A stretch of 57,547 bases of DNA from a virus (IMGVR_UViG_3300003465_000006:1-57547), one strand, 5' to 3'. Counted from the stretch's first letter, positions 1,713-57,188 are shown. The notes: generated from the letters alone by a model not told the origin. Program-made: numbers and translations.

Positions 1713-2917
1713 TGGCGTGGGATAAGACTGGTCAGCTGATTGCGGCTGACCCAATTGAAACTTTTCGATTGGTCGAGCTTGAAGTAACCAAACCGTGGAT
1801 CGATCGAGTAAAAGCTAAGTTGGCTCAAGCCAATACGAAACTTGTCCCGATTGCTGGGTTCGGAGATTCCATCTTAGAAGGTTATTCTGCATTCCCAGAC
1901 ATCATGAACCTTGGAATGCTCGGTAAACTTCGCGATGCACTTCAAGCTCAGTATGGAGATGGCGGAACTGGCGTCATCACGGCCAACAAGAACCAAGAGA
2001 GCTATGTAGGACTCTACCCAACGATTAGTCTTCCGATTACCCGTACCTTCGGTACCTGGGCAACAGCTTCTGGGGGTCAGTCCGGATTTACTTTGGACAC
2101 TACGGGCAACAACTCTCGAATCACCATAAGCGGTGTTCGAGGTAGACGAGGCTTCGTCGGTTTGGTTCAGAAGTCTACCTATACAGGCAACATCGAAATC
2201 CGGGTCGACGGTGTTCTTCGCCAAACAATCGCTGCAGGGAACGCTACGACGCGTTTGTTCATGGGCCCAGAGATCGATATGGGTGTTGGAACACACACCG
2301 TTGAGATCAAGAACGTGTCGAACTCTGGAATGAGCTTCGATTATTTCTACGCCTATAACGACGCCGGAGTTGTCGTCGACAACTGGGCTGTAGCAGGTAG
2401 CTCTTCTGGTCTAATCAATCAGCTGGTTCACACCGGAGGAGCAACTCTTGGTCAGTGGTTGATGGCGCACTATTACGCTGGAGCTGGGTGGTGGGCTGGA
2501 AGATCTCCGGCTGGGATTACAGACCCAGTCTGGCTCCTGGAGCATGGTCATAACGACATCAATCAGTCTGTCACGGAAGACACTCTGCGTGCGAATCTGC
2601 TACAGCAGCTAGTTTGGATGCCGCAATACAACCCGCAATCGCCAACCGTCCCTGGGTTTGATGCGCTATTGATTCACATGGCGTTGAGTGACAACGCTCT
2701 AACCACAGGGTGGGGCGCACGGCACGCATACGCCAAAGCGATTAGATCCGTCGCCGACATCCAAGGTCTTCCCGTGTATTCTGTTCAGCGCCGTACTCGT
2801 GGTGTGTCTCGTTGGATCACTGCGATGGGTTATGCCACCGGGACCGAGTACACGCACCCGAACCCTGCTGGACACGCTTGGATGGCGCAACCGCTCATCG
2901 ATCTGCTGGCTGCCTGA
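1712..2917 (+). CDS. SGNH/GDSL-family esterase domain protein
   Basis: FGDSILEG (block I), GHND (block III), THPNPAGH (block V); start placed at the TGATG overlap. Confidence 0.8.
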   Translation: MAWDKTGQLIAADPIETFRLVELEVTKPWIDRVKAKLAQANTKLVPIAGFGDSILEGYSAFPDIMNLGMLGKLRDALQAQYGDGGTGVITANKNQESYVGLYPTISLPITRTFGTWATASGGQSGFTLDTTGNNSRITISGVRGRRGFVGLVQKSTYTGNIEIRVDGVLRQTIAAGNATTRLFMGPEIDMGVGTHTVEIKNVSNSGMSFDYFYAYNDAGVVVDNWAVAGSSSGLINQLVHTGGATLGQWLMAHYYAGAGWWAGRSPAGITDPVWLLEHGHNDINQSVTEDTLRANLLQQLVWMPQYNPQSPTVPGFDALLIHMALSDNALTTGWGARHAYAKAIRSVADIQGLPVYSVQRRTRGVSRWITAMGYATGTEYTHPNPAGHAWMAQPLIDLLAA

Positions 2918-3427: not shown

Positions 3428-3880
3428 ATGGATCCAGCAGACGCACCAGCTTCAGACGGTGTAATGCTAGCACTCCTTCCGTCGATGGTAGACGATTGGC
3501 AGAAGACAAAGGTTCCGCATCTGACGTTAGTCTATGCTGGAACGGTTGGCGATCTCGGGCCTACTGAATTCAGCGATCTGGCGAAGGACGCATCCATGCT
3601 GGCGTCTCTGGCAAGACCGATCGCACTGCGGGTGATCGCAAGAGAGACGTTCGGGAAGGAGACCGACCAGGTCGACGTCTTCCGTCTCCAGCCGACTCCA
3701 GAGCTAATGGCCATGCGAAGGACCGTGGAGAAGTGGAACGCAAGCGAATTTCCCTTCAATCCGCATGTAACGATCGGACCAGTCGGGACTTTCGTGGAGT
3801 TTCCACCGAGAATGATCGGTTTCGACCGAGTTGCTGTTGGATGGGGTGAAGAGTACCTCATCTTCTCGCTCAATAGGTAA
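3428..3880 (+). CDS. 2H phosphoesterase (LigT/2'-5' RNA ligase/Acb1-like)
   Basis: Two HxT motifs, PHLTLVY and PHVTIG; AGGAGG RBS. Confidence 0.8.
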   Translation: MDPADAPASDGVMLALLPSMVDDWQKTKVPHLTLVYAGTVGDLGPTEFSDLAKDASMLASLARPIALRVIARETFGKETDQVDVFRLQPTPELMAMRRTVEKWNASEFPFNPHVTIGPVGTFVEFPPRMIGFDRVAVGWGEEYLIFSLNR

Positions 3881-4000
3881 GAAGTCGCTATAAGAGGGCT
3901 TTCTTCGAGAGGGCGCGCGCACTCACTTCTTTTTTTACCGAAAATCTCCTCAAATCGATTTATTCGGTAAAGAAAACGGCGAGTAATACAAGGAGAAGGC

Positions 4001-4240
4001 ATGTTGGATGTCACGGGGATTCTCAAAGAACTTACCGCCGAGATTGATTACGCTATCGCTGAGTCACATAAGACTCTTGATAGACGTGACGCCCACAACT
4101 GGGCCAAGGGTTATCGCAAAGGCCTGGTGTTCGCTCGCGATCTCCTGCAGGATCGAGTTGTTATCGATTTGACGGAGCAAGCAAAAAAAGCAGACGAGGC
4201 TGACAACGTGGTCAGAATCAAACAAGCGAAAGGGGGATAG
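4001..4240 (+). CDS. Hypothetical protein
   Basis: AAGGAG RBS; 79-aa ORF. Confidence 0.65.
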   Translation: MLDVTGILKELTAEIDYAIAESHKTLDRRDAHNWAKGYRKGLVFARDLLQDRVVIDLTEQAKKADEADNVVRIKQAKGG

Positions 4241-4242
4241 TA

Positions 4243-4326
4243 GTGTCTACTTTCGAAATCGTCGTCATTATTCTTCTCGCCATCTTGGTCTTGCTGGCGC
4301 TCATTCATCCTCGACGACCCTTCTAA
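4243..4326 (+). CDS. 27-aa membrane peptide (MSTFEIVVIILLAILVLLALIHPRRPF)
   Basis: Translated by hand; GTG start after AGGGGG; single TM segment. Confidence 0.5.
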   Translation: MSTFEIVVIILLAILVLLALIHPRRPF

Positions 4327-4351
4327 ATTCGTAAAAGGGAGGCGGTACACA

Positions 4352-4465
4352 TTGGAACATCTGTCCAACGACCTATTGTGGTCAATACTTGGCGGGGTAA
4401 TAGGTTATTTTGTTGGCGCTGTTCGATGCCGCCTCAAGCATCAAGGACGGCGTGGCCGATGCTGA
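4352..4465 (+). CDS. 37-aa membrane peptide
   Basis: GGGAGG RBS, TTG start; LLWSILGGVIGYFVGAV TM segment and basic tail. Confidence 0.5.
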   Translation: MEHLSNDLLWSILGGVIGYFVGAVRCRLKHQGRRGRC

Positions 4466-4677
4466 AACTTAAGAAGATGTTTCAGCTGAAACTCAAGACG
4501 AAGCCGACAACAAAACAAGTTTTCACGGCGATGGTTCTCGTCATGTGGGCGTTGTCGTTTCTCGTTGACATAGCAAATCCGAAGTACGATCCTCCGGATT
4601 ACATGAACCCTCTTATCATGCTAGTAGGAGGCTATCTGTTCGCCACGACAACAGCATCTAGCGGTAAGGAGAAGTAA
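4459..4677 (+). CDS. Two-TM membrane protein (holin-like)
   Basis: Two hydrophobic segments; upstream of the endolysin. Confidence 0.55.
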   Translation: MLKLKKMFQLKLKTKPTTKQVFTAMVLVMWALSFLVDIANPKYDPPDYMNPLIMLVGGYLFATTTASSGKEK

Positions 4678-5111
4678 TGGTAGACGAAAGCGAAGGTAAA
4701 CAACACAAAACTCTAGTCGTCACCACAGAAGACGGACTGGTCCTTACCGGGAATCGTATCGAAATCTTCGAGGCGCGTATTGTCGAGAGCATACGGAAGC
4801 CGTTCTATCTGGTGATGGGCATATTCGGCTTCATTTTCATTATCTTGATTGGCGGAGCCGTTTTCTTGCGTTCTCTTAACGATACAGTCAACAACACTGA
4901 CAGAATTGTCACAGAGGTGGCCGGGCCGGAAGCCAGAGCGCAGTCTATCAAGGCGCAGTCCGCGCTTATTCAGAAGCTTGTCGATGAGATGGATTGCCGT
5001 GATCAGGAGAATCTGCAGAAGCTGATCGACAACCTCGTCAAGAGCGGTGTAACGATGCTAAAAGGTCTCGAACCGGTTGTCGATCCAATTTGCAAGCCGA
5101 AGGGTGGTTGA
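4677..5111 (+). CDS. Membrane protein (lysis-associated)
   Basis: One TM segment (FYLVMGIFGFIFIILIGGAVFL); lysis-cluster position. Confidence 0.6.
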   Translation: MVDESEGKQHKTLVVTTEDGLVLTGNRIEIFEARIVESIRKPFYLVMGIFGFIFIILIGGAVFLRSLNDTVNNTDRIVTEVAGPEARAQSIKAQSALIQKLVDEMDCRDQENLQKLIDNLVKSGVTMLKGLEPVVDPICKPKGG

Positions 5112-17030: not shown

Positions 17031-17534
17031 ATGGCTACAGTAACAAGCTACACCGCAAATCGAATGAAGGAAATCGAGGATACCACTATCGTCGACGGGG
17101 ATGTCGTTGCGGGAGAGCTAATTCTCACCCGTCGAGATGGTATCACGATCAATGCTGGAGACGTTGTCGGTCCTCAGGGAAATCCAGGCCCTCAGGGAGA
17201 TCCTGGTGCGGATGCCAGTTTTGCAGGTTACACAGAGCCGAGAGTAGATCTAGGAACTACTTCTGGCGTTGTTACTCTGGATTTCGGTGTTGCAAACGTT
17301 TGGAGAATTAACCCGAACGGTGCGGTGACCATTCAGTTCGCCAACCTTCCGCCTGTCGGTGAAGTTGCTTCCGGAACGCTGATCATCGAGAACAGCGCCT
17401 ATGCTTTCACCTGGCCTGCTGGAACGCAGTTTGCAAATGGCGTTGCTCCGATTCTCAATGGGAAGACGATCATCTCGATGTTTGCATATTCGACGACGAT
17501 GATGCTCGGAACCGCCATGGTTGGTGTGGCCTAA
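17031..17534 (+). CDS. Minor tail protein with short collagen tract
   Basis: GPQGNPGPQGDPG; TWPAG fibre-like motif. Confidence 0.7.
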   Translation: MATVTSYTANRMKEIEDTTIVDGDVVAGELILTRRDGITINAGDVVGPQGNPGPQGDPGADASFAGYTEPRVDLGTTSGVVTLDFGVANVWRINPNGAVTIQFANLPPVGEVASGTLIIENSAYAFTWPAGTQFANGVAPILNGKTIISMFAYSTTMMLGTAMVGVA

Positions 17535-18763
17535 TGCTAGCCGACCTAATGCGGAGAGAAGCTGTTCGATTGACCAGTTGGATCAGAGCAGCCGTTACGA
17601 CAACTACTGCTACGAATCAACCGACGAGATACAGTGGTCAAAAGCGTATTCTCACTCTTTCCGACGGGTCCTTGTTGTGCGTCATCCCCAAAACAGGATC
17701 GAATGTTGATGCATATTTCTATCGTTCAACCGATGGCGGAAAGACATGGGCTCAATACGTCGAAACGATTGCTGGATGGAACGACGGATCGATTTCGTCT
17801 TATGTCGATTCGGGTGGTAACGAGAGATTTCTAACCGTATGGAAACAGTACGGTACCGGTGATTCTCGTATAGACGGCGCTATCTATACCATGGTTGGTA
17901 CGTTCAATATTGCTAAGACAACCATCACATGGAGTGCTGCAGTACAGGTAGCAGGATCCTCGAGCGGCATCATGATGCCAGACTGTGTGGTTGCCGCTGA
18001 AGGAACCGGAGGAGCCGGCCACGTTGTTTACAGCAGCAACGTGTCATCAACACAAACTACAAAATATTGTAGGATCTCTATTACAAATGCTGGTGTTCCA
18101 ACAGCAGGTAGTATTGCAACGATCAGTGGAAGCTTCACGATTGCCGGAGCGCATACATATCCGTCAATCGATATGAGTCTGTCATCAAAACGATTGATGT
18201 GTGCCTGGGTTGCAGGACCTGCTCAGCCAGGAATTTTCTTTGCGACAGCATCATATTCCGCAGGCTCATGGACGTGGGGTGGCGCTGTACAGTTTAGCTC
18301 ATATTACGTCGATTCCAGCAATGATACTGGATTTGCGTGTCGTTTTGACGGATCAAGACCGGTAATTGCCGGGCAGTTCAAGGCTACGAATGGGTCAAAG
18401 AACATTCAGGTTTATGATTCTGTGAACTACTTGACGTTTATCGAACGTGTTCACGTCCTGACTGATTCTAGTACATTCATCGGTAACGCTAGCATGGCAA
18501 TCGACGCCAACGCAAATATTTATATTTTCGGATCCTCTTTCGACGGAACTTATTTCAGAGATTTGGTATACTACAAGATAACTCGTTCGGGAGTCGATCT
18601 CTCAATTGGGAGTCGTATTAAACTTGATCCTTTCCCTATGAGCTCTTCTTCTACGGCGGCGCCATTTCCAAACGTGTTTTATTACAGAAACAAGATGCAC
18701 GTTCTTTACAATCGTGGTAGTGATTCTCCATATCCAGTGTATTACGGAGGTGTCAACGTATGA
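17534..18763 (+). CDS. Putative receptor-binding tail protein with Asp-box (BNR) motif
   Basis: YRSTDGGKTW; Ser/Thr/Gly-rich beta composition. Confidence 0.65.
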   Translation: MLADLMRREAVRLTSWIRAAVTTTTATNQPTRYSGQKRILTLSDGSLLCVIPKTGSNVDAYFYRSTDGGKTWAQYVETIAGWNDGSISSYVDSGGNERFLTVWKQYGTGDSRIDGAIYTMVGTFNIAKTTITWSAAVQVAGSSSGIMMPDCVVAAEGTGGAGHVVYSSNVSSTQTTKYCRISITNAGVPTAGSIATISGSFTIAGAHTYPSIDMSLSSKRLMCAWVAGPAQPGIFFATASYSAGSWTWGGAVQFSSYYVDSSNDTGFACRFDGSRPVIAGQFKATNGSKNIQVYDSVNYLTFIERVHVLTDSSTFIGNASMAIDANANIYIFGSSFDGTYFRDLVYYKITRSGVDLSIGSRIKLDPFPMSSSSTAAPFPNVFYYRNKMHVLYNRGSDSPYPVYYGGVNV

Positions 18764-43371: not shown

Positions 43372-43673
43372 GGGAGATCTGGAAGTACGAGCTGGAGGTT
43401 GCCGACGTACAGAAGATCTGGATGACGAAGGGCGCTGAGATTCTTCACGTTGCCGGCCAAGAGAAGTCGAGTCTTTCCCAAGGCCATGCCTACTTTGGAG
43501 TCTTTCCGATGTTGTGGGCTTTGATCGATCCTGGTGCAGAGAGAGTTCAGCGACTGATCGCTGTTGTCGGCTCTGGAAACCCGGCTCCATCCGAGGAAGA
43601 TTCGGCTAAGTACGTCGGCACGGCTATCTGCGGAATGATGGTGTGGCATGTGTTCGATGGCGGAGAGTTGTAA
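43368..43673 (+). CDS. Hypothetical protein
   Basis: IWKY.L...GA.ILHV...LWAL.D...YVGT...VWHVF, a common phage small-protein pattern. Confidence 0.75.
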   Translation: MREIWKYELEVADVQKIWMTKGAEILHVAGQEKSSLSQGHAYFGVFPMLWALIDPGAERVQRLIAVVGSGNPAPSEEDSAKYVGTAICGMMVWHVFDGGEL

Positions 43674-44165
43674 AGTGGGGACAGCGGATTCCTACGTCTT
43701 CTAAGCGTGGGGAGGTGCACCGTCCGTTGACTTGGCGTACCTCACGGACTTGTTCAAACCGAGACCGTCGAGTCTAACCCACTAACTTCTGATCCTGCAC
43801 GGTACCGTGGGTGACGACAGCGTTGATGTCGTGAACGACTAACCGGCCCGTCAAGAGAGATATGGATACTGCTGGTACGGAACGGCAAGTCTGTGTCTCT
43901 TGGGCGACGAGGAGATCGGAATCGACGGAGCTGTTTTTGAACAGAGGCGGTATTGAATATAAAGCAAGTCCCATGAGTTTGTTGAAGGAGGCCTAAAACA
44001 GCCATGGCTGGTACTCGGCCTTCAACAACTCGTGGTTATTCTCATCTGGTACGTGAGAAGTGGTCAGTAGTAATCGTGGGTGGGCTCTAGAAGAGCAAAG
44101 GCCCTTTGTCATAGTGAAGTCAGGCGCCCTCCAGCCCTTGGCGAACCTGCTATGGACCACACTAA
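43674..44165 (+). ncRNA. Candidate ~490-nt structured RNA upstream of the Cas7-like gene (strand assumed)
   Basis: No credible ORF; long stems such as CCATGAGTTTGTTGAAGG/CCTTCAACAACTCGTGG and CAAGAGA/TCTCTTG. Confidence 0.5.
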
Positions 44166-44200
44166 TCTCTATGTTCCACAACATTTAAGGAGAACTGACA

Positions 44201-44800
44201 ATGTGGAATGAGTATGACCTAACTTTCGAGCTCATGGAACCGATTCTCGGAACCATCCCGAAGGATCGAAACGTCTTCGAGAACTTTATCATGGATCATG
44301 CCAAGACAGAGATGGAGAAGGAGAAGGCGGCAGAGGACATCAATCGTGTGCCAGAAGAAATCGAGGCGCGGGGGTGGACCGGATTCTACGAGGATGACGA
44401 AGGCCATCCGATCCTGATGGACTACCAGTTCAAAGGGTTCCTCAAGAATGCTGGAAACATTCTGAAGGATTCGATCGGGATCAAGAATCTGAGATCCCAT
44501 ATCAACGACACGGTTTTCGTTATGCCACGGTCAATCATGTTGGCCGAGAAGCCTGACGACGTGCTCGAGAGGCCTCTGCGTGCGATGACGATGCAGGGCC
44601 CGCGAGTCTCGGTGGTGCGATCGGACATTATCAGTCCTGGCCGCCACTACAATCTGACGATCATGGTTCTCGACAAGTCGAAGGTAACAGAGGACGCCCT
44701 TCGTTCCGTCTTGTCATATGGGGAGTTCTGCGGGCTGCTCCAGTGGCGCAACGGCGGGTACGGTCGCTTCAAGGTGGTGGAATTCAACAACAAGAAGTGA
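44201..44800 (+). CDS. Stand-alone Cas7/RAMP-superfamily-like protein
   Basis: First strand YDLTFELMEPILG; GHPILMDYQFKGFLK (compare RAMP P.IPGSSLKG.LR); C-terminal G-rich loop YGEFCGLLQWRNGGYGRFKV; AAGGAG RBS. Confidence 0.78.
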   Translation: MWNEYDLTFELMEPILGTIPKDRNVFENFIMDHAKTEMEKEKAAEDINRVPEEIEARGWTGFYEDDEGHPILMDYQFKGFLKNAGNILKDSIGIKNLRSHINDTVFVMPRSIMLAEKPDDVLERPLRAMTMQGPRVSVVRSDIISPGRHYNLTIMVLDKSKVTEDALRSVLSYGEFCGLLQWRNGGYGRFKVVEFNNKK

Positions 44801-44850
44801 TTCAAAGTCCTGGGTATGACTCTAAATCTGCCCTTTTGCTTTTTTGTGAT

Positions 44851-45243
44851 GGTATGGCGGGGTCTGATACCGCACCGTAACGGTTGTGTCAAGCGCGGTT
44901 GAGTAATGGTAACGCACAGCGGTGTAGTGTGGTGATGATGTGAGGCTATGTGCGCTTTAGTAAAGGTAAGGTGGGGTACCGTCATATCTCGTTTCGTAAC
45001 GGCATCGTGTTGAGACGTACGGTGGCGGTAACGCTAGGTCCGATAACGTAGAGGTAGGGTTGCGTAAGGTACTGACCTGTAGTGAAAGAGTATTGTTGTG
45101 TGTAGTGTTGGTAACGCACTGTTGTGTGTAGTGTTGGTAACGCGATGTACCGGTCCTGTGAGGCTGGGTGTGGTATAGGTAAAGTGGTGTACGGTATTGT
45201 TACGGTGAAGCCAAGTCCGGCGAAGTGCCGTTATGTGATGTAA
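44851..45243 (+). repeat. Pentameric NGY-NN array (76 pentamers in 14 blocks), candidate guide-RNA array
   Basis: Manual parse: 68/76 pentamers are N-G-Y-N-N; blocks separated by single extra bases; 12/14 blocks start with GGY. Confidence 0.85.
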
Positions 45244-45270
45244 AACTTCCCCCAAACAAGAATGAGGAGA

Positions 45271-45858
45271 ATGCGAAAAGCACTGATTATCGCGTCGGTC
45301 ATCGTTCTAATTTTCACCTCGGTCATGTGGATCACTGCCGAGAACAAACTCGATGATATGACCTCCGAGAAAGGCAAGCTTCAAACAGACTACATCATTC
45401 TCAAGGGTACACAGACAGCAACGAAACAGTCCTTGAAAAATACCTCCAAGGCGTACGTTGAGTCACAGCAGAGAATTGCTGAGCTAGAACGCCTGCATAC
45501 CGAACAACAGAACAGAGTTTCAGAGCTTGAGAAGAAGCTACAGACAGAGAAAGCCAAACAGACGGCCTCGAGAAGCTCGACACGACAAAGAACGACGGTT
45601 GCTGCCTCTGCAAGTAGCGGGAATTCAGACTTTTGGAGACGACTGGCTAACTGCGAGTGTGCCTCTGGCCACTGCGGTGGACCCTACGTCGGGTATTTCC
45701 AGTTCTCCAGAGACACAGCAGCAAAAGTCGGGATCGATGGGTCAGAGTCTTACGAAGAGCAGAGAGCTGCTGCTCAAGCGTGGGCTCAACGCATCCATCC
45801 ACGAGAAGGAACCAGCTCCGGATGGCCCGTATGCTGGTGGAAAGCGCAAGGAGCATAA
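45271..45858 (+). CDS. Membrane-anchored coiled-coil protein with C-terminal Rpf/lytic transglycosylase-like domain
   Basis: N-terminal TM, coiled coil, then FWRRLANCE...GYFQFS..T...EEQ..AA....GWPVC. Confidence 0.75.
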   Translation: MRKALIIASVIVLIFTSVMWITAENKLDDMTSEKGKLQTDYIILKGTQTATKQSLKNTSKAYVESQQRIAELERLHTEQQNRVSELEKKLQTEKAKQTASRSSTRQRTTVAASASSGNSDFWRRLANCECASGHCGGPYVGYFQFSRDTAAKVGIDGSESYEEQRAAAQAWAQRIHPREGTSSGWPVCWWKAQGA

Positions 45859-52442: not shown

Positions 52443-52829
52443 ATGACACAAGAAATATGGAAAAATATTGAAGATGCTCCAAATTACATGATAAGTAACT
52501 TTGGGAAAGTCAAAAACATCAAAACTGGAAGAATACTAAAAAATTCTGTAGATAAGTATGGTTATCTAAAAGTTTCTTTGATGCAAGGTAATAAGATGTT
52601 ACAGAAACGAGTTCACAGATTGGTGGCTAAAGCTTTTGTCAATGGTGAGGCGCCAGATCTTATTGTGAATCATAAAGATGGTAACAAGTTGAATCCACAC
52701 TTTTTGAATCTTGAGTGGATTACGCATGCTGAAAACATGGCTCATGCGGTGGAGAAAGGTTTAATAAGAAAACTTCGTAGATGGGAAGTAACAAAAAGTG
52801 GAAAGATGAAACTCGTAGAAAGAGGATAG
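52443..52829 (+). CDS. NUMOD4-HNH homing endonuclease
   Basis: EIWK.I....Y.ISNFG.V, GYL.V.L, VHRLVA.AF, VNHKDGNK.N....NLEW.T..EN..HA; AT-rich. Confidence 0.9.
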   Translation: MTQEIWKNIEDAPNYMISNFGKVKNIKTGRILKNSVDKYGYLKVSLMQGNKMLQKRVHRLVAKAFVNGEAPDLIVNHKDGNKLNPHFLNLEWITHAENMAHAVEKGLIRKLRRWEVTKSGKMKLVERG

Positions 52830-52831
52830 AA

Positions 52832-53002
52832 ATGCCTACTCGATTCTTCAACCCGTTCAATCCTGGTATGCCGACAGTTGAAGGTACACGCCAGAGAGAC
52901 AAGAGTCGAAATAAGCCGGAGTTCAACAAGAAGGCGAAAGTTCGTCGTGAGAAGGCGAAGGCGGCCAAGGGGGCTAGGAAGAAGAACAGGAAGAACAGAT
53001 GA
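52832..53002 (+). CDS. Highly basic small protein
   Basis: AGAGG RBS before ATG; Lys/Arg-rich. Confidence 0.55.
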   Translation: MPTRFFNPFNPGMPTVEGTRQRDKSRNKPEFNKKAKVRREKAKAAKGARKKNRKNR

Positions 53003-53523
53003 CTACACAACTCTTAACTGAGCAGTGGAAGATCATCCCGGATTTCCCGAACTACGAGATTTCTAGTTTTGGTCGTATCTACAATCGTAAGCACGATCTT
53101 ATGATGTCGTCCAATCCGAACAATTTTGGTCACATCAAGATCTCACTACTATCGGGAGAGGACCGTTGTCGCTACACTCGTTCTGTGGCCCTTATGGTGG
53201 CTGAAGCGTTCGTTCCGGTACCGAACTCAGAAAGTGACTCTCTTGTTGTCCTGGATGGAAATTTCGAGAATGTAGCGGCTTACAACCTCGCTTGGCGTCC
53301 CAAGAGTTTCGCTTGGCGTTACACAAGGCAGCTCAAAGAAGAACAACCGATTCACTATCTGAATCTCTCAGTTGTCAATGTGTTGGAGAATGTCGAGTTC
53401 GAGTCTATCGTACAAGCTGGGATAGCTGAGGGACTTTTGTTTGATGACATCTGGCGTTCCACCTACACAAAAGAACCGGTTTATCCGACTGGTTCGATTT
53501 TTGAAGTCATCGGAGAATGTTGA
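52999..53523 (+). CDS. NUMOD4 protein with degenerate HNH region
   Basis: WK.IP.FPNYEISSFGR; VVLDGN.EN....NL.W lacks the catalytic His. Confidence 0.75.
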   Translation: MTTQLLTEQWKIIPDFPNYEISSFGRIYNRKHDLMMSSNPNNFGHIKISLLSGEDRCRYTRSVALMVAEAFVPVPNSESDSLVVLDGNFENVAAYNLAWRPKSFAWRYTRQLKEEQPIHYLNLSVVNVLENVEFESIVQAGIAEGLLFDDIWRSTYTKEPVYPTGSIFEVIGEC

Positions 53524-53942: not shown

Positions 53943-54465
53943 ACACGCCTTTCTTAGCCCAAGCAACTATCACTGGTTGAATTATGATGACCAGAAACTT
54001 GAGGCCCGCTATTTCTCCATGATGGCCGCTCGTCGTGGAAGCGATCTACACAACCTTGCTCATGAGGCAATTCGTCTTGGTGTCAAACTCGCCAGATCCA
54101 ATCAGGCGCTTTCGACATACGTCAACGACGCCATTGGCTACAAGATGGTCTGTGAGCAGAGCTTGTATTATTCCGACAACTGTTTCGGAACCGCAGACAC
54201 TATTTCCTTCAGAAGGAATAAACTTCGCATTCACGATTTGAAGACTGGCCTCACAGCTACTTCAATGAAGCAACTCGAGGTCTATGCTGCGCTGTTCTGT
54301 CTTGAATATGCTATGAGTCCATTCGAGATTGACATCGAACTTCGCATTTATCAAAGAGACGAGATAATGGTGTACGAACCGAAGCCAGATATAATTGTTG
54401 GAATCATGGAAGTCATCGTCGAATTCGACAAGCAGATCGAGGCGATAAAGGAGGCCCAGTGGTAG
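53908..54465 (+). CDS. PD-(D/E)XK / Cas4-like exonuclease
   Basis: HA.LSPS, G..LH, EQ, GTAD, IHDLKTG, QL.VYA. Confidence 0.8.
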   Translation: MNFNQHSELAGRHAFLSPSNYHWLNYDDQKLEARYFSMMAARRGSDLHNLAHEAIRLGVKLARSNQALSTYVNDAIGYKMVCEQSLYYSDNCFGTADTISFRRNKLRIHDLKTGLTATSMKQLEVYAALFCLEYAMSPFEIDIELRIYQRDEIMVYEPKPDIIVGIMEVIVEFDKQIEAIKEAQW

Positions 54466-57188
54466 TCATCGACGAAAGCGATTATCTAGCACACTACGGG
54501 ATCCTTCGTCGCTCTGGCCGTTATCCTTGGGGTAGCGGTGGTAGCGTGAACACTCGTAGTCGTAGCTTTCTCGACATGGTGGATTCACTCAAAGCCGAGG
54601 GTATGTCGGACCCGGACATTTGTCGTGCTCTGGAGATTGGGCGTGAAGACCATAAAGGCGTCTTTCGTCCTTCTGTAACCGACCTTCGTGCACTTAAGAC
54701 CATTGCTCTGAATCAGAAGCGTATGGCCGACATCGCAATGGCTGAGCGACTCAAAGCCAGAGGGTGGTCCAATCCCGCAATCGCCGAGAGAATGGGCCTT
54801 CCTGGTGAGTCTTCTGTTCGAGCTCTTCTTGCTCCCGGAGTCAAGGATCGAGCGGATGTTCTGACAAGCGTCAGCAACAAGCTTCGTGAAGAAGTGGACG
54901 CCAAGACATACGTTGATGTTGGTAGTGGAACAGAGCGACTCATCAATATCGGCGATGGTGTAAGCAATAAAATCGGTGTCAGTCCTGAGAAACTGAACAG
55001 CGCCGTAGCCATGCTTCGTGAAGAAGGTTATGTGACTCACACGGTTCCTATCAGAACCGCTGCTGGACACGACACGAGGACAAAAGTTCTTGCTCCGCCT
55101 GGTACTACATGGGCCGACGTTGCAAAGAATAAGGACAAGATCCAAACCGTAAGTGGCGTATCACAAGATGGTGGAAGAACCTTCGTTCCATATCAGCCAC
55201 CAATTGCAATCCACCCGAATCGCGTCAAGGTAAACTATAACGAAGATGGTGGTGGACAAGCAGATGGCGTCATCTACGTTCGGCCCGGTGTCAAAGACGT
55301 TTCTCTAGGTAAGAGTCGTTATGCACAAGTTCGTGTCCAGGTTGGTGAAGGTCACTACCTAAAGGGCATGGCTATGTACAAAGACGATCTTCCTCCTGGT
55401 GTTGACCTTGTCTTCAACACAAAAAAGAGCAAGAAGGAAGTCTCGTCCAAGCTCGACGCCATGAAGCCGATCAAGGATGATCCGGAATTTCCATTTGGGT
55501 CTGTCACTCGGCCCCTGCTTGACGAAAATGGTAAGCACTATTCAGCAATGAATGTGGTGTTCGAAGAAGGAGATTGGGGTTCGTGGTCAAAAAGTCTCTC
55601 TCCTCAGTTCTTGTCTAAGCAGGCTCCTACTTTGGCGAAGGCCCAGTTGGACAAGGCCTATGATTCTCGTCAGAAAGAGTTCGACGAGATCATGGCTCTT
55701 ACGAACCCAACGGTTCGAAAGAGACTTCTTCGTGCTTTTGCTGAGAGTGCTGATTCTTCTGCTGTTCACATGGATGCTGCAGCCATCAACCAGAAGCAAG
55801 CATGGCGTGCTATTCTTCCGATCAGCTCAATGAAGTCCACCGAGGTCTATGCTCCTGGCTATGATCATGGCGAGAGAGTAGTCCTTGTACGATTCCCTCA
55901 CGGTGGGACATTCGAGATTCCTGAACTAACTGTGAACAACCGGCATCCTGAATCTCGTAAGCTTCTAGGTGATGCCAAAGACGCTATTGGTATCAACCAT
56001 GAGACTGCCAAGAAGCTTTCTGGTGCTGACTTCGATGGTGATACAGTCATTGTCATCCCAAATAATCAGCGAAAGATCAGGACATCACACACGCTAGAGC
56101 AGCTAAAAGACTTTGACCCCATGGTCTACAAGATTCCTAAGGATAGCCCTATCCCTAGGATGAGTAAGGAACGTAAGGGTCAGGAGATGGGTAACATCTC
56201 AAACCTGATCACAGACATGACCATCAAGGGTGCTTCTCATGAGGAGATCTCACGGGCGGTAAAACATTCGATGGTTGTCATCGATGCTGAGAAGCATGAG
56301 CTAAACTGGAAGCAGTCAGCTCTTGACAACAACATCCCCTCCTTGAAGAAGAAGTATCAAGGAGGCGCCGATCGTGGGGCTTCGACGATCATCTCTAGAG
56401 CCACGTCTCAAGAGTGGGTTCTCGACAGGCGTCCAGCCTATGCAACAGAGGGTGGCCCGATCGATCGTAAGACTGGTGAGAAGAGGTTTGTACCCACCGG
56501 TAAAACAAAGGTCGACAAGAAGGGTAATGTCGTACAAAGAAAGCAGCGCTCCACTAAGTTGGCTGAGACCAATGACGCACATACACTGGTCTCTGAGATG
56601 GGTACTCGTGTTGAGAAGATCTACGCAGATCATTCCAACAAGTTGAAGGGACTGGCCAACAAAGCAAGACTCGAGTTGATTAATACCCCCACCCCTAAGT
56701 ATTCGGCCTCTGCGGCAAAGACTTACGCAAAGGAAGTAAACTCGCTCAATGCAAAACTGACTCTGGCTATAATGAATCGCCCTCTCGAACGCCACGCCGA
56801 GCGAGTGGCAGCAGCGGTGGTGAAGACCAAACGTCAGGCCAATCCAGAGATGGATCATGACACGATCCGTAAGGTTCGCTATCAGGCTCTTGCTGAAGCG
56901 CGCCTCAGGTTGAAGGCCAACCAGACACAGATCGAGATCACTTCTGATGAATGGAATGCGATTCAAGCTGGCGCCATCACGAACCACAAGCTTGATCAGA
57001 TCCTAGCCAAGGCCAACATGGAGATGGTTCGCTCTCTTGCTACACCACGCAAGCAGAGACTGATGACATCACAGAAGACAGCACAGGCAAAGCGTTTGCT
57101 TTCTGCTGGTTACACTAGATCAGAGGTGGCAGCTAGACTGGGCGTGTCACTCACAACTCTTGACAACTCAGTTCATGGAGAAGAGTGA
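54459..57188 (+). CDS. Putative single-chain two-barrel RNA polymerase with terminal HTH domains
   Basis: LSGADFDGD (56028-56042 encodes DFDGD); VLVRFP; QVR...LKGM; MG.ISN...HS.V.IDAEK; N- and C-terminal HTH-like segments. Confidence 0.75.
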   Translation: MVVIDESDYLAHYGILRRSGRYPWGSGGSVNTRSRSFLDMVDSLKAEGMSDPDICRALEIGREDHKGVFRPSVTDLRALKTIALNQKRMADIAMAERLKARGWSNPAIAERMGLPGESSVRALLAPGVKDRADVLTSVSNKLREEVDAKTYVDVGSGTERLINIGDGVSNKIGVSPEKLNSAVAMLREEGYVTHTVPIRTAAGHDTRTKVLAPPGTTWADVAKNKDKIQTVSGVSQDGGRTFVPYQPPIAIHPNRVKVNYNEDGGGQADGVIYVRPGVKDVSLGKSRYAQVRVQVGEGHYLKGMAMYKDDLPPGVDLVFNTKKSKKEVSSKLDAMKPIKDDPEFPFGSVTRPLLDENGKHYSAMNVVFEEGDWGSWSKSLSPQFLSKQAPTLAKAQLDKAYDSRQKEFDEIMALTNPTVRKRLLRAFAESADSSAVHMDAAAINQKQAWRAILPISSMKSTEVYAPGYDHGERVVLVRFPHGGTFEIPELTVNNRHPESRKLLGDAKDAIGINHETAKKLSGADFDGDTVIVIPNNQRKIRTSHTLEQLKDFDPMVYKIPKDSPIPRMSKERKGQEMGNISNLITDMTIKGASHEEISRAVKHSMVVIDAEKHELNWKQSALDNNIPSLKKKYQGGADRGASTIISRATSQEWVLDRRPAYATEGGPIDRKTGEKRFVPTGKTKVDKKGNVVQRKQRSTKLAETNDAHTLVSEMGTRVEKIYADHSNKLKGLANKARLELINTPTPKYSASAAKTYAKEVNSLNAKLTLAIMNRPLERHAERVAAAVVKTKRQANPEMDHDTIRKVRYQALAEARLRLKANQTQIEITSDEWNAIQAGAITNHKLDQILAKANMEMVRSLATPRKQRLMTSQKTAQAKRLLSAGYTRSEVAARLGVSLTTLDNSVHGEE

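Follow-up and report, generated by a model that had tools for sequence, protein, structure and literature searches.

The locus consists of a gene, vipr (44201–44800, plus strand), which encodes a 199-residue single-RRM RAMP (Cas7-like) protein, and of a long run of N-G-Y-N-N pentamers located downstream on the same strand (44851–45243). The two are separated by a spacer of 50 nt (44801–44850), and the next gene begins at 45262. The run is a putative vrRNA array, with 76 units in 14 modules that lack structured tails. Between the stop codon of vipr and the array lies an inverted repeat of 11 bp, imperfect and with a T-rich run after it (44797–44828). A stretch of 23–29 nt from this inverted repeat recurs in two related loci, L087 (819–847) and L084 (353–375), where it is positioned 5′ rather than 3′ of vipr, and the repeat may form a mobile hairpin with a regulatory or terminator-like role. 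On its other side, vipr is preceded by a gap of 527 nt (43674–44200), in which the plus strand has no long ORF and Rfam gives no match. The all-base Fourier power at period 5 within this gap is highest at 43711–43741 (3.18, compared to 2.72 for the 99.9th percentile of the window, the whole stretch of DNA that was analysed). Despite this peak, there is no G-Y chain in the gap.

The window is the IMG/VR virus record IMGVR_UViG_3300003465_000006, with 57,547 bases and a completeness rating of 96%, and its source is a tailed soil phage. A scan of 54 ORFs of the 86-ORF set against PHROGs identifies a siphovirus gene set (large terminase, portal, capsid protease, major tail protein, tape measure, endolysin and holin), together with a 1271-residue polymerase-primase, a helicase and an exonuclease. 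Resemblance to known phages is confined to about 300 bases of a 20-kb query, all inside the polymerase gene, where the matches are to Rhodococcus, Streptomyces and Microbacterium phages (77–82%). From this likeness we infer, rather than report as a result, that the host is probably actinobacterial. The initial annotation had described the gene as standing outside any CRISPR-Cas context, and this agrees with a PADLOC scan of 84 of the 86 greedily picked ORFs of at least 60 residues, which finds no Cas protein in the window, and with Tandem Repeats Finder, which finds no repeat-spacer array there. Two other regions of the genome are unusual in their own right. A 909-residue protein (54459–57185) matches phrog_4291 from end to end (E 0), a family labeled 'RNA-dependent RNA polymerase', which is odd for a tailed DNA phage. 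Two HNH homing-endonuclease-like genes (52443–52826 and 52999–53520) are located close together, with the helicase on one side and the exonuclease on the other.

The translation of vipr has 199 residues and contains the motifs EPILG, KGFLK and QWRNGGYGRF, as the initial annotation had described. The AlphaFold2 model, with an alignment of 42 sequences as the input, has a pLDDT of 87.7 and a pTM of 0.80. As modeled, the fold of the protein is that of a Cas7/Csm3-type RAMP, with an RRM core, a thumb and a glycine-rich loop, in agreement with the earlier assignment. A helical insertion (residues ~23–47), a β-hairpin thumb (residues ~120–144) and a C-terminal G-loop (residues 178–189) can be recognized. 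In the alignment, G178 through G188 of the G-loop are conserved, and Q181 and R183 are invariant across all 42 sequences.

A Foldseek search of the Protein Data Bank finds 142 matches with E values of 0.001 or lower. The top match is a type VII Cas7 (E 5.1e-8), and the other leading matches are Csm3, Cmr subunits and the Cas7 domains of gRAMP. The library extends to 8 April 2026, and structures of Vipr are not among its entries. The best named match in BFVD is a phage 'Cas system-associated RAMP superfamily protein' (E 3.4e-16, 36% identity). At the level of sequence, the protein has no match in Pfam, NCBIfam or PADLOC, and in PHROGs it matches only the unnamed family phrog_4652 (E 8e-6). A tblastn search of GenBank phages gives seven records, the best with 36% identity, and Escherichia phage SUSP1 is not among them. 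Relatives of the protein are nonetheless numerous, 664 of 759 candidates having E values of 0.001 or lower.

The array begins about 50 nt after the ORF and is non-coding, as had been noted earlier: there is no convincing plus-strand ORF in 44851–45243 and little period-3 signal. A gap-tolerant chain search places G at position 2 in 72 of the 76 units, a pyrimidine at position 3 in 72 and the complete G-Y pair in 68. The first position is relaxed, again as first described, with G in 30 of the 76 units. Counted from a different start position, the N-G-Y-N-N unit is the same as YNNNG. The autocorrelation of G-Y is +0.47 at a lag of 5 and +0.27 at a lag of 10, and the observed lag-5 statistic (z 8.5) is matched by none of 2000 first-order Markov simulations. 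Among 2286 windows of 401 nt on both strands, the score exceeds 0.12 only where they overlap 44851–45243. Moreover, a phase-shift-tolerant chain search of both strands of the window finds no second chain with a score of 6 or higher.

The Fourier power at a period of exactly 5.0 is unremarkable, at most 2.29 as compared to the window-wide 99.9th percentile of 2.72. This is because the true mean period is 5.2, as 13 of the 75 steps in the array are 6 nt long and none is 4 nt. The G-Y Fourier power is correspondingly 5.74 at a period of 5.2 and 0.06 at 5.0. Elsewhere in the genome, the top all-base period-5 power of the window (3.6) is located at 17761–17781, within an ORF (17534–18760) that has no PHROG match, and this is not a G-Y array. 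The RNA of the array is no more stable than its shuffles (z −0.75). A search of 43600–45400 against Rfam gives chance-level snoRNA-type matches only, with no hammerhead, and a promoter and terminator scan gives nothing above the shuffle expectation. The lack of extra stability and of Rfam matches indicates that there are no tails or ribozymes between the modules.

The six-base steps give the array a second-order structure that was absent from the initial annotation. A +1 register break occurs about every 26 nt: after every 5–7 units there is a six-base unit, which is followed by a strict GGY. The logo of the boundary is a six-base N-G-Y-R-A-Y, and then a G-G-Y-A-A head. The breaks divide the array into 14 modules of 3–8 units, all on the plus strand, of which seven are exactly 26 nt long and 12 start with GG. 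These are M1 (44851–44881, 6 units, 31 nt), M2 (44882–44907, 5 units, 26 nt), M3 (44908–44938, 6 units, 31 nt), M4 (44939–44964, 5 units, 26 nt; its head has TG, not GG), M5 (44965–45000, 7 units, 36 nt), M6 (45001–45026, 5 units, 26 nt), M7 (45027–45052, 5 units, 26 nt), M8 (45053–45088, 7 units, 36 nt), M9 (45089–45109, 4 units, 21 nt; head AG), M10 (45110–45135, 5 units, 26 nt), M11 (45136–45151, 3 units, 16 nt), M12 (45152–45177, 5 units, 26 nt), M13 (45178–45203, 5 units, 26 nt) and M14 (45204–45243, 8 units), the last of the array. Tandem Repeats Finder detects a perfect tandem duplication of 26 nt, the length of one module, at 45094–45143 on the plus strand (1.9 copies).

The same breaks are found throughout the family. 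A count of steps over 86 distinct loci, with a chain in 76 of them, gives 5645 steps of 5 nt, 1011 of 6 nt and 38 of 4 nt. Among 3919 steps of synthetic strict-5 arrays made from the same units, in comparison, one is of 6 nt and one of 4 nt. The six-nt steps are not noise. The median interval between them is 6 units (interquartile range 5–6), and family-wide the first position is G in 90% of the units after a six-nt step, as compared to 30% of the ordinary units, those after a five-nt step. Near-identical modules are found at differing positions in the arrays of related phages (22 pairs), and the window's own modules have none in common with the relatives examined. Some of the arrays are considerably longer. 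In L072, the array (3636–4858) has 237 units and 42 register breaks, and in L013 (2039–5223) the gene is flanked by G-Y chains on either side, with 619 units as chained.

The association between gene and array was surveyed in 80 loci from IMG/VR, which after removal of four duplicates left 76 distinct loci, with proteins of 31–50% identity to that of the window. A same-strand 5-nt G-Y signal flanks the gene in 69 of these 76, so that the periodic arrays expected beside homologues are indeed present. The signal is downstream in 56 loci, upstream in six and on both sides in seven, and there is none within 3 kb in the remaining seven. The strongest 200-nt periodic window is on the gene strand in 73 of the 80 loci. 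In L065 (about 2281–2580, minus strand) and L079 (about 3961), the strongest periodic signal is opposite the gene strand, in contrast to the other family members. Closer relatives (63–75% identity) are present on ten metagenome contigs, nine of which were parsed, L093 being left out as it ends inside the gene. The array starts 6–11 nt after the gene in eight of these nine; the ninth, L092, has no array, and this contig ends 31 nt past the gene. All eight close-relative contigs that extend past the gene therefore carry an array. There is no conserved accessory (vap) gene: the best genuine neighbor family is found in at most seven of the 86 sources, as compared to 86 of 86 for vipr itself.

These observations bear on the possibility that the periodic stretch acts as DNA (as iterons, a bent-DNA element or a packaging signal), or is a mutational by-product, and is unrelated to the gene. 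The mean period of 5.2 corresponds to half a turn of the DNA helix, and transcription of the array is putative, both of which would suit such an element. On the other hand, the asymmetry of the signal follows the strand of the gene, with the strongest window there in the 73 loci noted above. The array is also tied to an RNA-binding RAMP fold across proteins of 31–82% identity, and its sequences are hypervariable with G-Y fixed. We consider a DNA element or by-product very improbable.

A pairing of this kind has a published counterpart. VIPR (Viral Interference Programmable Repeat) systems, RNA-guided DNA-silencing systems first described in 2026, have a phage-borne minimal RAMP protein and are divided into seven types, with layouts that include 'staggered arrays with overlapping vrRNAs' (bioRxiv 10.64898/2026.04.26.720920). 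The initial annotation had put forward this name, and it proves to be both real and fitting. The preprint reports a set of 667 systems and defines an array by a YNNGG or related consensus with at least 4 units; a vap gene is typical of the systems and not universal, and the seed matches include stand-alone genes (bioRxiv 10.64898/2026.04.26.720920). The one biochemically studied Vipr is that of Escherichia phage SUSP1, which has a type II VIPR with the Vipr protein YP_009199429.1, Vap1 and four vrRNAs (bioRxiv 10.64898/2026.04.26.720920, 10.64898/2026.04.26.720927).

The similarity between the 199-residue protein and SUSP1 Vipr is weak, and sequence profiles indicate that the two are homologues. 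The profile of the 199-residue protein's family was compared to an alignment of 36 proteins of the SUSP1 family with the program hhalign, which gives a probability of 92% and an E value of 6.7e-7 over 140 columns, with 17% identity. The N-terminal third, including the position of H17, is outside this alignment. With the single sequence of SUSP1 Vipr in place of its family, the G-loop alone is aligned (probability 72%). Among PDB sequences, the profile of the family finds a type VII Cas7 (E 7e-4) and, weakly, 'SUSP1 Vipr protein' 36pp_D (E 0.092). A six-frame search of the SUSP1 genome with the same profile gives a single match (E 0.0011), which lies inside the gene for YP_009199429.1, the protein that is named Vipr in a later preprint.

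The G-loop alignment places C173-G-x-x-D177-W178-R179 of SUSP1 Vipr opposite C177-G-x-x-Q181-W182-R183 of the protein studied here. The cryo-EM contacts described for SUSP1 Vipr are by H17 and D177 to G1, by R138 and W178 to G2, and by R179 and its neighbors to Y3 (bioRxiv 10.64898/2026.04.26.720927). The invariant Q181 therefore stands opposite the G1-reading D177, and the residues that contact G2 and Y3 are kept, as W182 and R183. The change from D177 to Gln fits a handle in which G-Y is read but the first G is not, as judged from the aligned sequences. As the equivalent of H17 is unaligned, the connection between Gln and the relaxed first base is offered as a suggestion.

Taken together, the locus is very probably a VIPR system that operates by the published general mechanism. 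It is a real member of a known, recently published kind and not a new kind. By homology with SUSP1, the array would be transcribed, and Vipr protomers would coat its RNA with one protomer for each five-base unit. Each pair of protomers would clamp the fixed G-Y, which corresponds to positions G2 and Y3 in the GGY of the published systems. The two bases after G-Y would be exposed and could pair with DNA, with every third base being skipped, and binding to the DNA would silence genes of a rival element with no involvement of a nuclease.

The modules raise the question of how much of the array constitutes one guide. We favor, with limited confidence, the reading that each module is a separate short guide over the reading of one long guide. 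In the favored reading, the full GGY head would nucleate the filament at the start of a module, and the +1 register break would either stop the filament or mark a processing site. The alternative, within the VIPR identification, is that the array gives rise to one or a few long guides, in which the six-base units are bulges or non-pairing linkers in a continuous filament and recognition spans several modules. It has the advantage that single modules seem too poor in variable sequence for specific targeting: with its conserved head and end, a module of 5 units has only about 6–10 freely variable paired bases, and modules this short are hard to reconcile with specific targeting in comparison to the 9–16 repeats of the published type II guides (bioRxiv 10.64898/2026.04.26.720920). 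Moreover, no terminator, ribozyme or structured tail separates the modules, and one turn of the SUSP1 filament, when bound to DNA, has five subunits (bioRxiv 10.64898/2026.04.26.720927), about as many as a module has units, so that there may be one extra base per turn. However, a long guide would force a fixed motif on its targets at regular intervals, due to the conserved boundary of N-G-Y-R-A-Y and G-G-Y-A-A. It also does not agree well with the strict GGY at the module heads (90% as compared to 30%), or with the reshuffling of modules between related phages as independent cassettes. Long guides are thus possible but the less likely arrangement.

The register breaks may be the 'staggered arrays' of the VIPR preprint (bioRxiv 10.64898/2026.04.26.720920). 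A broader proposal can also be put forward, tentatively and as a doubtful one. In a large VIPR clade, with at least 664 protein clusters and no tails, ribozymes or accessory genes, the boundaries of the guides might be set by register. A filament would be nucleated at the GGY head, extend over the relaxed NGY units and be ended by one extra base after 5–7 units, about one helical turn, giving very short guides that are shuffled as cassettes.

Searches for targets were performed with the modules of the window, allowing 0–3 skipped bases. Against the phage's own genome, the matches are equal to those of shuffled controls, and other VIPRs are likewise described as lacking self-targeting (bioRxiv 10.64898/2026.04.26.720920). 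The matches are also equal to shuffled controls in 462 kb of the relatives' loci. Gapped matches of the kind that the initial annotation had proposed to look for are thus no more frequent than in the controls in these two sets. In IMG/VR, the 16-base pattern of M14 with 1-nt skips has 26 exact matches, as compared to one for a reversed-order control. By our own grouping, these matches (L095–L120) make up about 15 independent groups. They fall in unrelated genes, for example a lambda-type large terminase and a RecA-like gene, and all of them read as one short peptide-like frame that is set by the pattern itself. The M14 excess is not counted as a target, since the genes do not converge and the pattern fixes the peptide-like frame. 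For an 11-unit module of the relative L088, IMG/VR has no exact match with 1-nt skips.

The composition of the variable bases was also compared to coding sequence. The NN dinucleotides of 4519 inner units correlate with positions 1–2 of sense codons with an r of 0.61, over 16 categories, uncorrected for six comparisons and with purine richness alone as a possible explanation; in the other phases r is 0.02 and −0.31. A likeness of NN to codon positions 1–2 has been reported for DNA-targeting VIPRs (bioRxiv 10.64898/2026.04.26.720920). Position 1 as a third pairing base was considered as well, by counting stop triplets formed by NN and the first base of the following unit. The observed and expected numbers are 35 and 41.3 for TAA, 44 and 44.4 for TAG, and 34 and 38.7 for TGA. 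Stop triplets are not depleted, so the first base of the next unit does not behave like a third paired base, and this candidate was rejected.

That the DNA target searches found no target would be expected if the Cas7-like ribonucleoprotein had a role other than DNA silencing, such as binding of a target RNA, or if the array acted as a decoy or sponge by titrating Vipr from competing phages. The closest solved structural relatives, the type III and type VII Cas7 proteins, act on RNA, and decoy and competing vrRNAs have been described in a preprint for SUSP1 satellites. However, the pairing of gene and array in 69 of 76 loci suits a cognate pair of protein and guide better than a decoy. In addition, the G-loop residues that contact G2 and Y3 are retained, and the NN composition resembles codon positions 1–2, as is reported for VIPRs that target DNA. 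Such a role is improbable in our view, and VIPR-type silencing of DNA is the preferred reading of the locus.

The locus resembles the SUSP1 VIPR in its overall organization. Both are carried by a phage and have a small single-RRM RAMP with a thumb and a G-loop, and in both an adjoining five-base array on the same strand combines a fixed G-Y with two variable bases. Both are without cas genes and without matches in their own genome. There are also several differences. The first base of the unit is free here (NGY, as compared to GGY in SUSP1), and a Gln replaces D177. The two proteins have about 17% identity over the aligned part, and the locus has no vap gene. Each tract of the SUSP1 type II system ends in an invariable structured 3′ tail, whereas there is no pseudoknot tail here, and its 9–16 GGY/NN repeats contrast with modules of 3–8 units. 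Due to the lack of structured tails and the short modules, the locus is not a member of VIPR type II.

Other arrays in the published material are closer in their repeats. In the legend of fig. S18 and the methods on type classification, the VIPR preprint names 'staggered vrRNA arrays' and the alternative repeats NNNGG, YNNNG and NNNNG (bioRxiv 10.64898/2026.04.26.720920), and the unit found here is of the YNNNG type. Non-canonical VIPR arrays, such as WGT/NN and TGH/NN with motifs repeated 10 times, have been described as well (bioRxiv 10.64898/2026.10.21.760802). Like the present array, they have units of five bases, lie beside Vipr-like folds and leave one position of the fixed triplet degenerate; they differ from it, as described in the available portion of that preprint, in that register breaks are unmentioned there.

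VIPR is a newly described form of RNA-guided DNA recognition that has been proposed to be older than CRISPR, and this picture is unchanged by the locus. What the locus adds is a well-populated clade of soil phages, without vap genes and without tails, that has a two-base G-Y handle and a change from Asp to Gln in the G-loop. Taken together, the change and the handle allow the reading of the handle by Vipr to be tested in a naturally occurring variant. The regular +1 breaks suggest, in a form open to testing, a way in which the length of a filament, and hence of a guide, could be set without a capping structure. Boundaries set by register, if true and not already contained in fig. S18, would be a new punctuation of guide-RNA arrays, and they would pose the question of how guides of 10–14 specified bases achieve specificity.

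The wider comparison is with class 1 CRISPR-Cas. In the Cas7-family backbone, one subunit is placed at each fixed step of the guide RNA. The backbone subunits of type III (Csm3, Cmr4) and type VII systems have the same fold and G-loop as the protein of this locus (Foldseek E values down to 5e-8, TM about 0.55). The step is 5 nt here, in contrast to 6 nt in type III and type VII Cas7. Unlike those systems, the locus has no CRISPR array and no other cas genes, and its gene is a stand-alone one in a phage. The fold is common with class 1 CRISPR-Cas, and the system is not.
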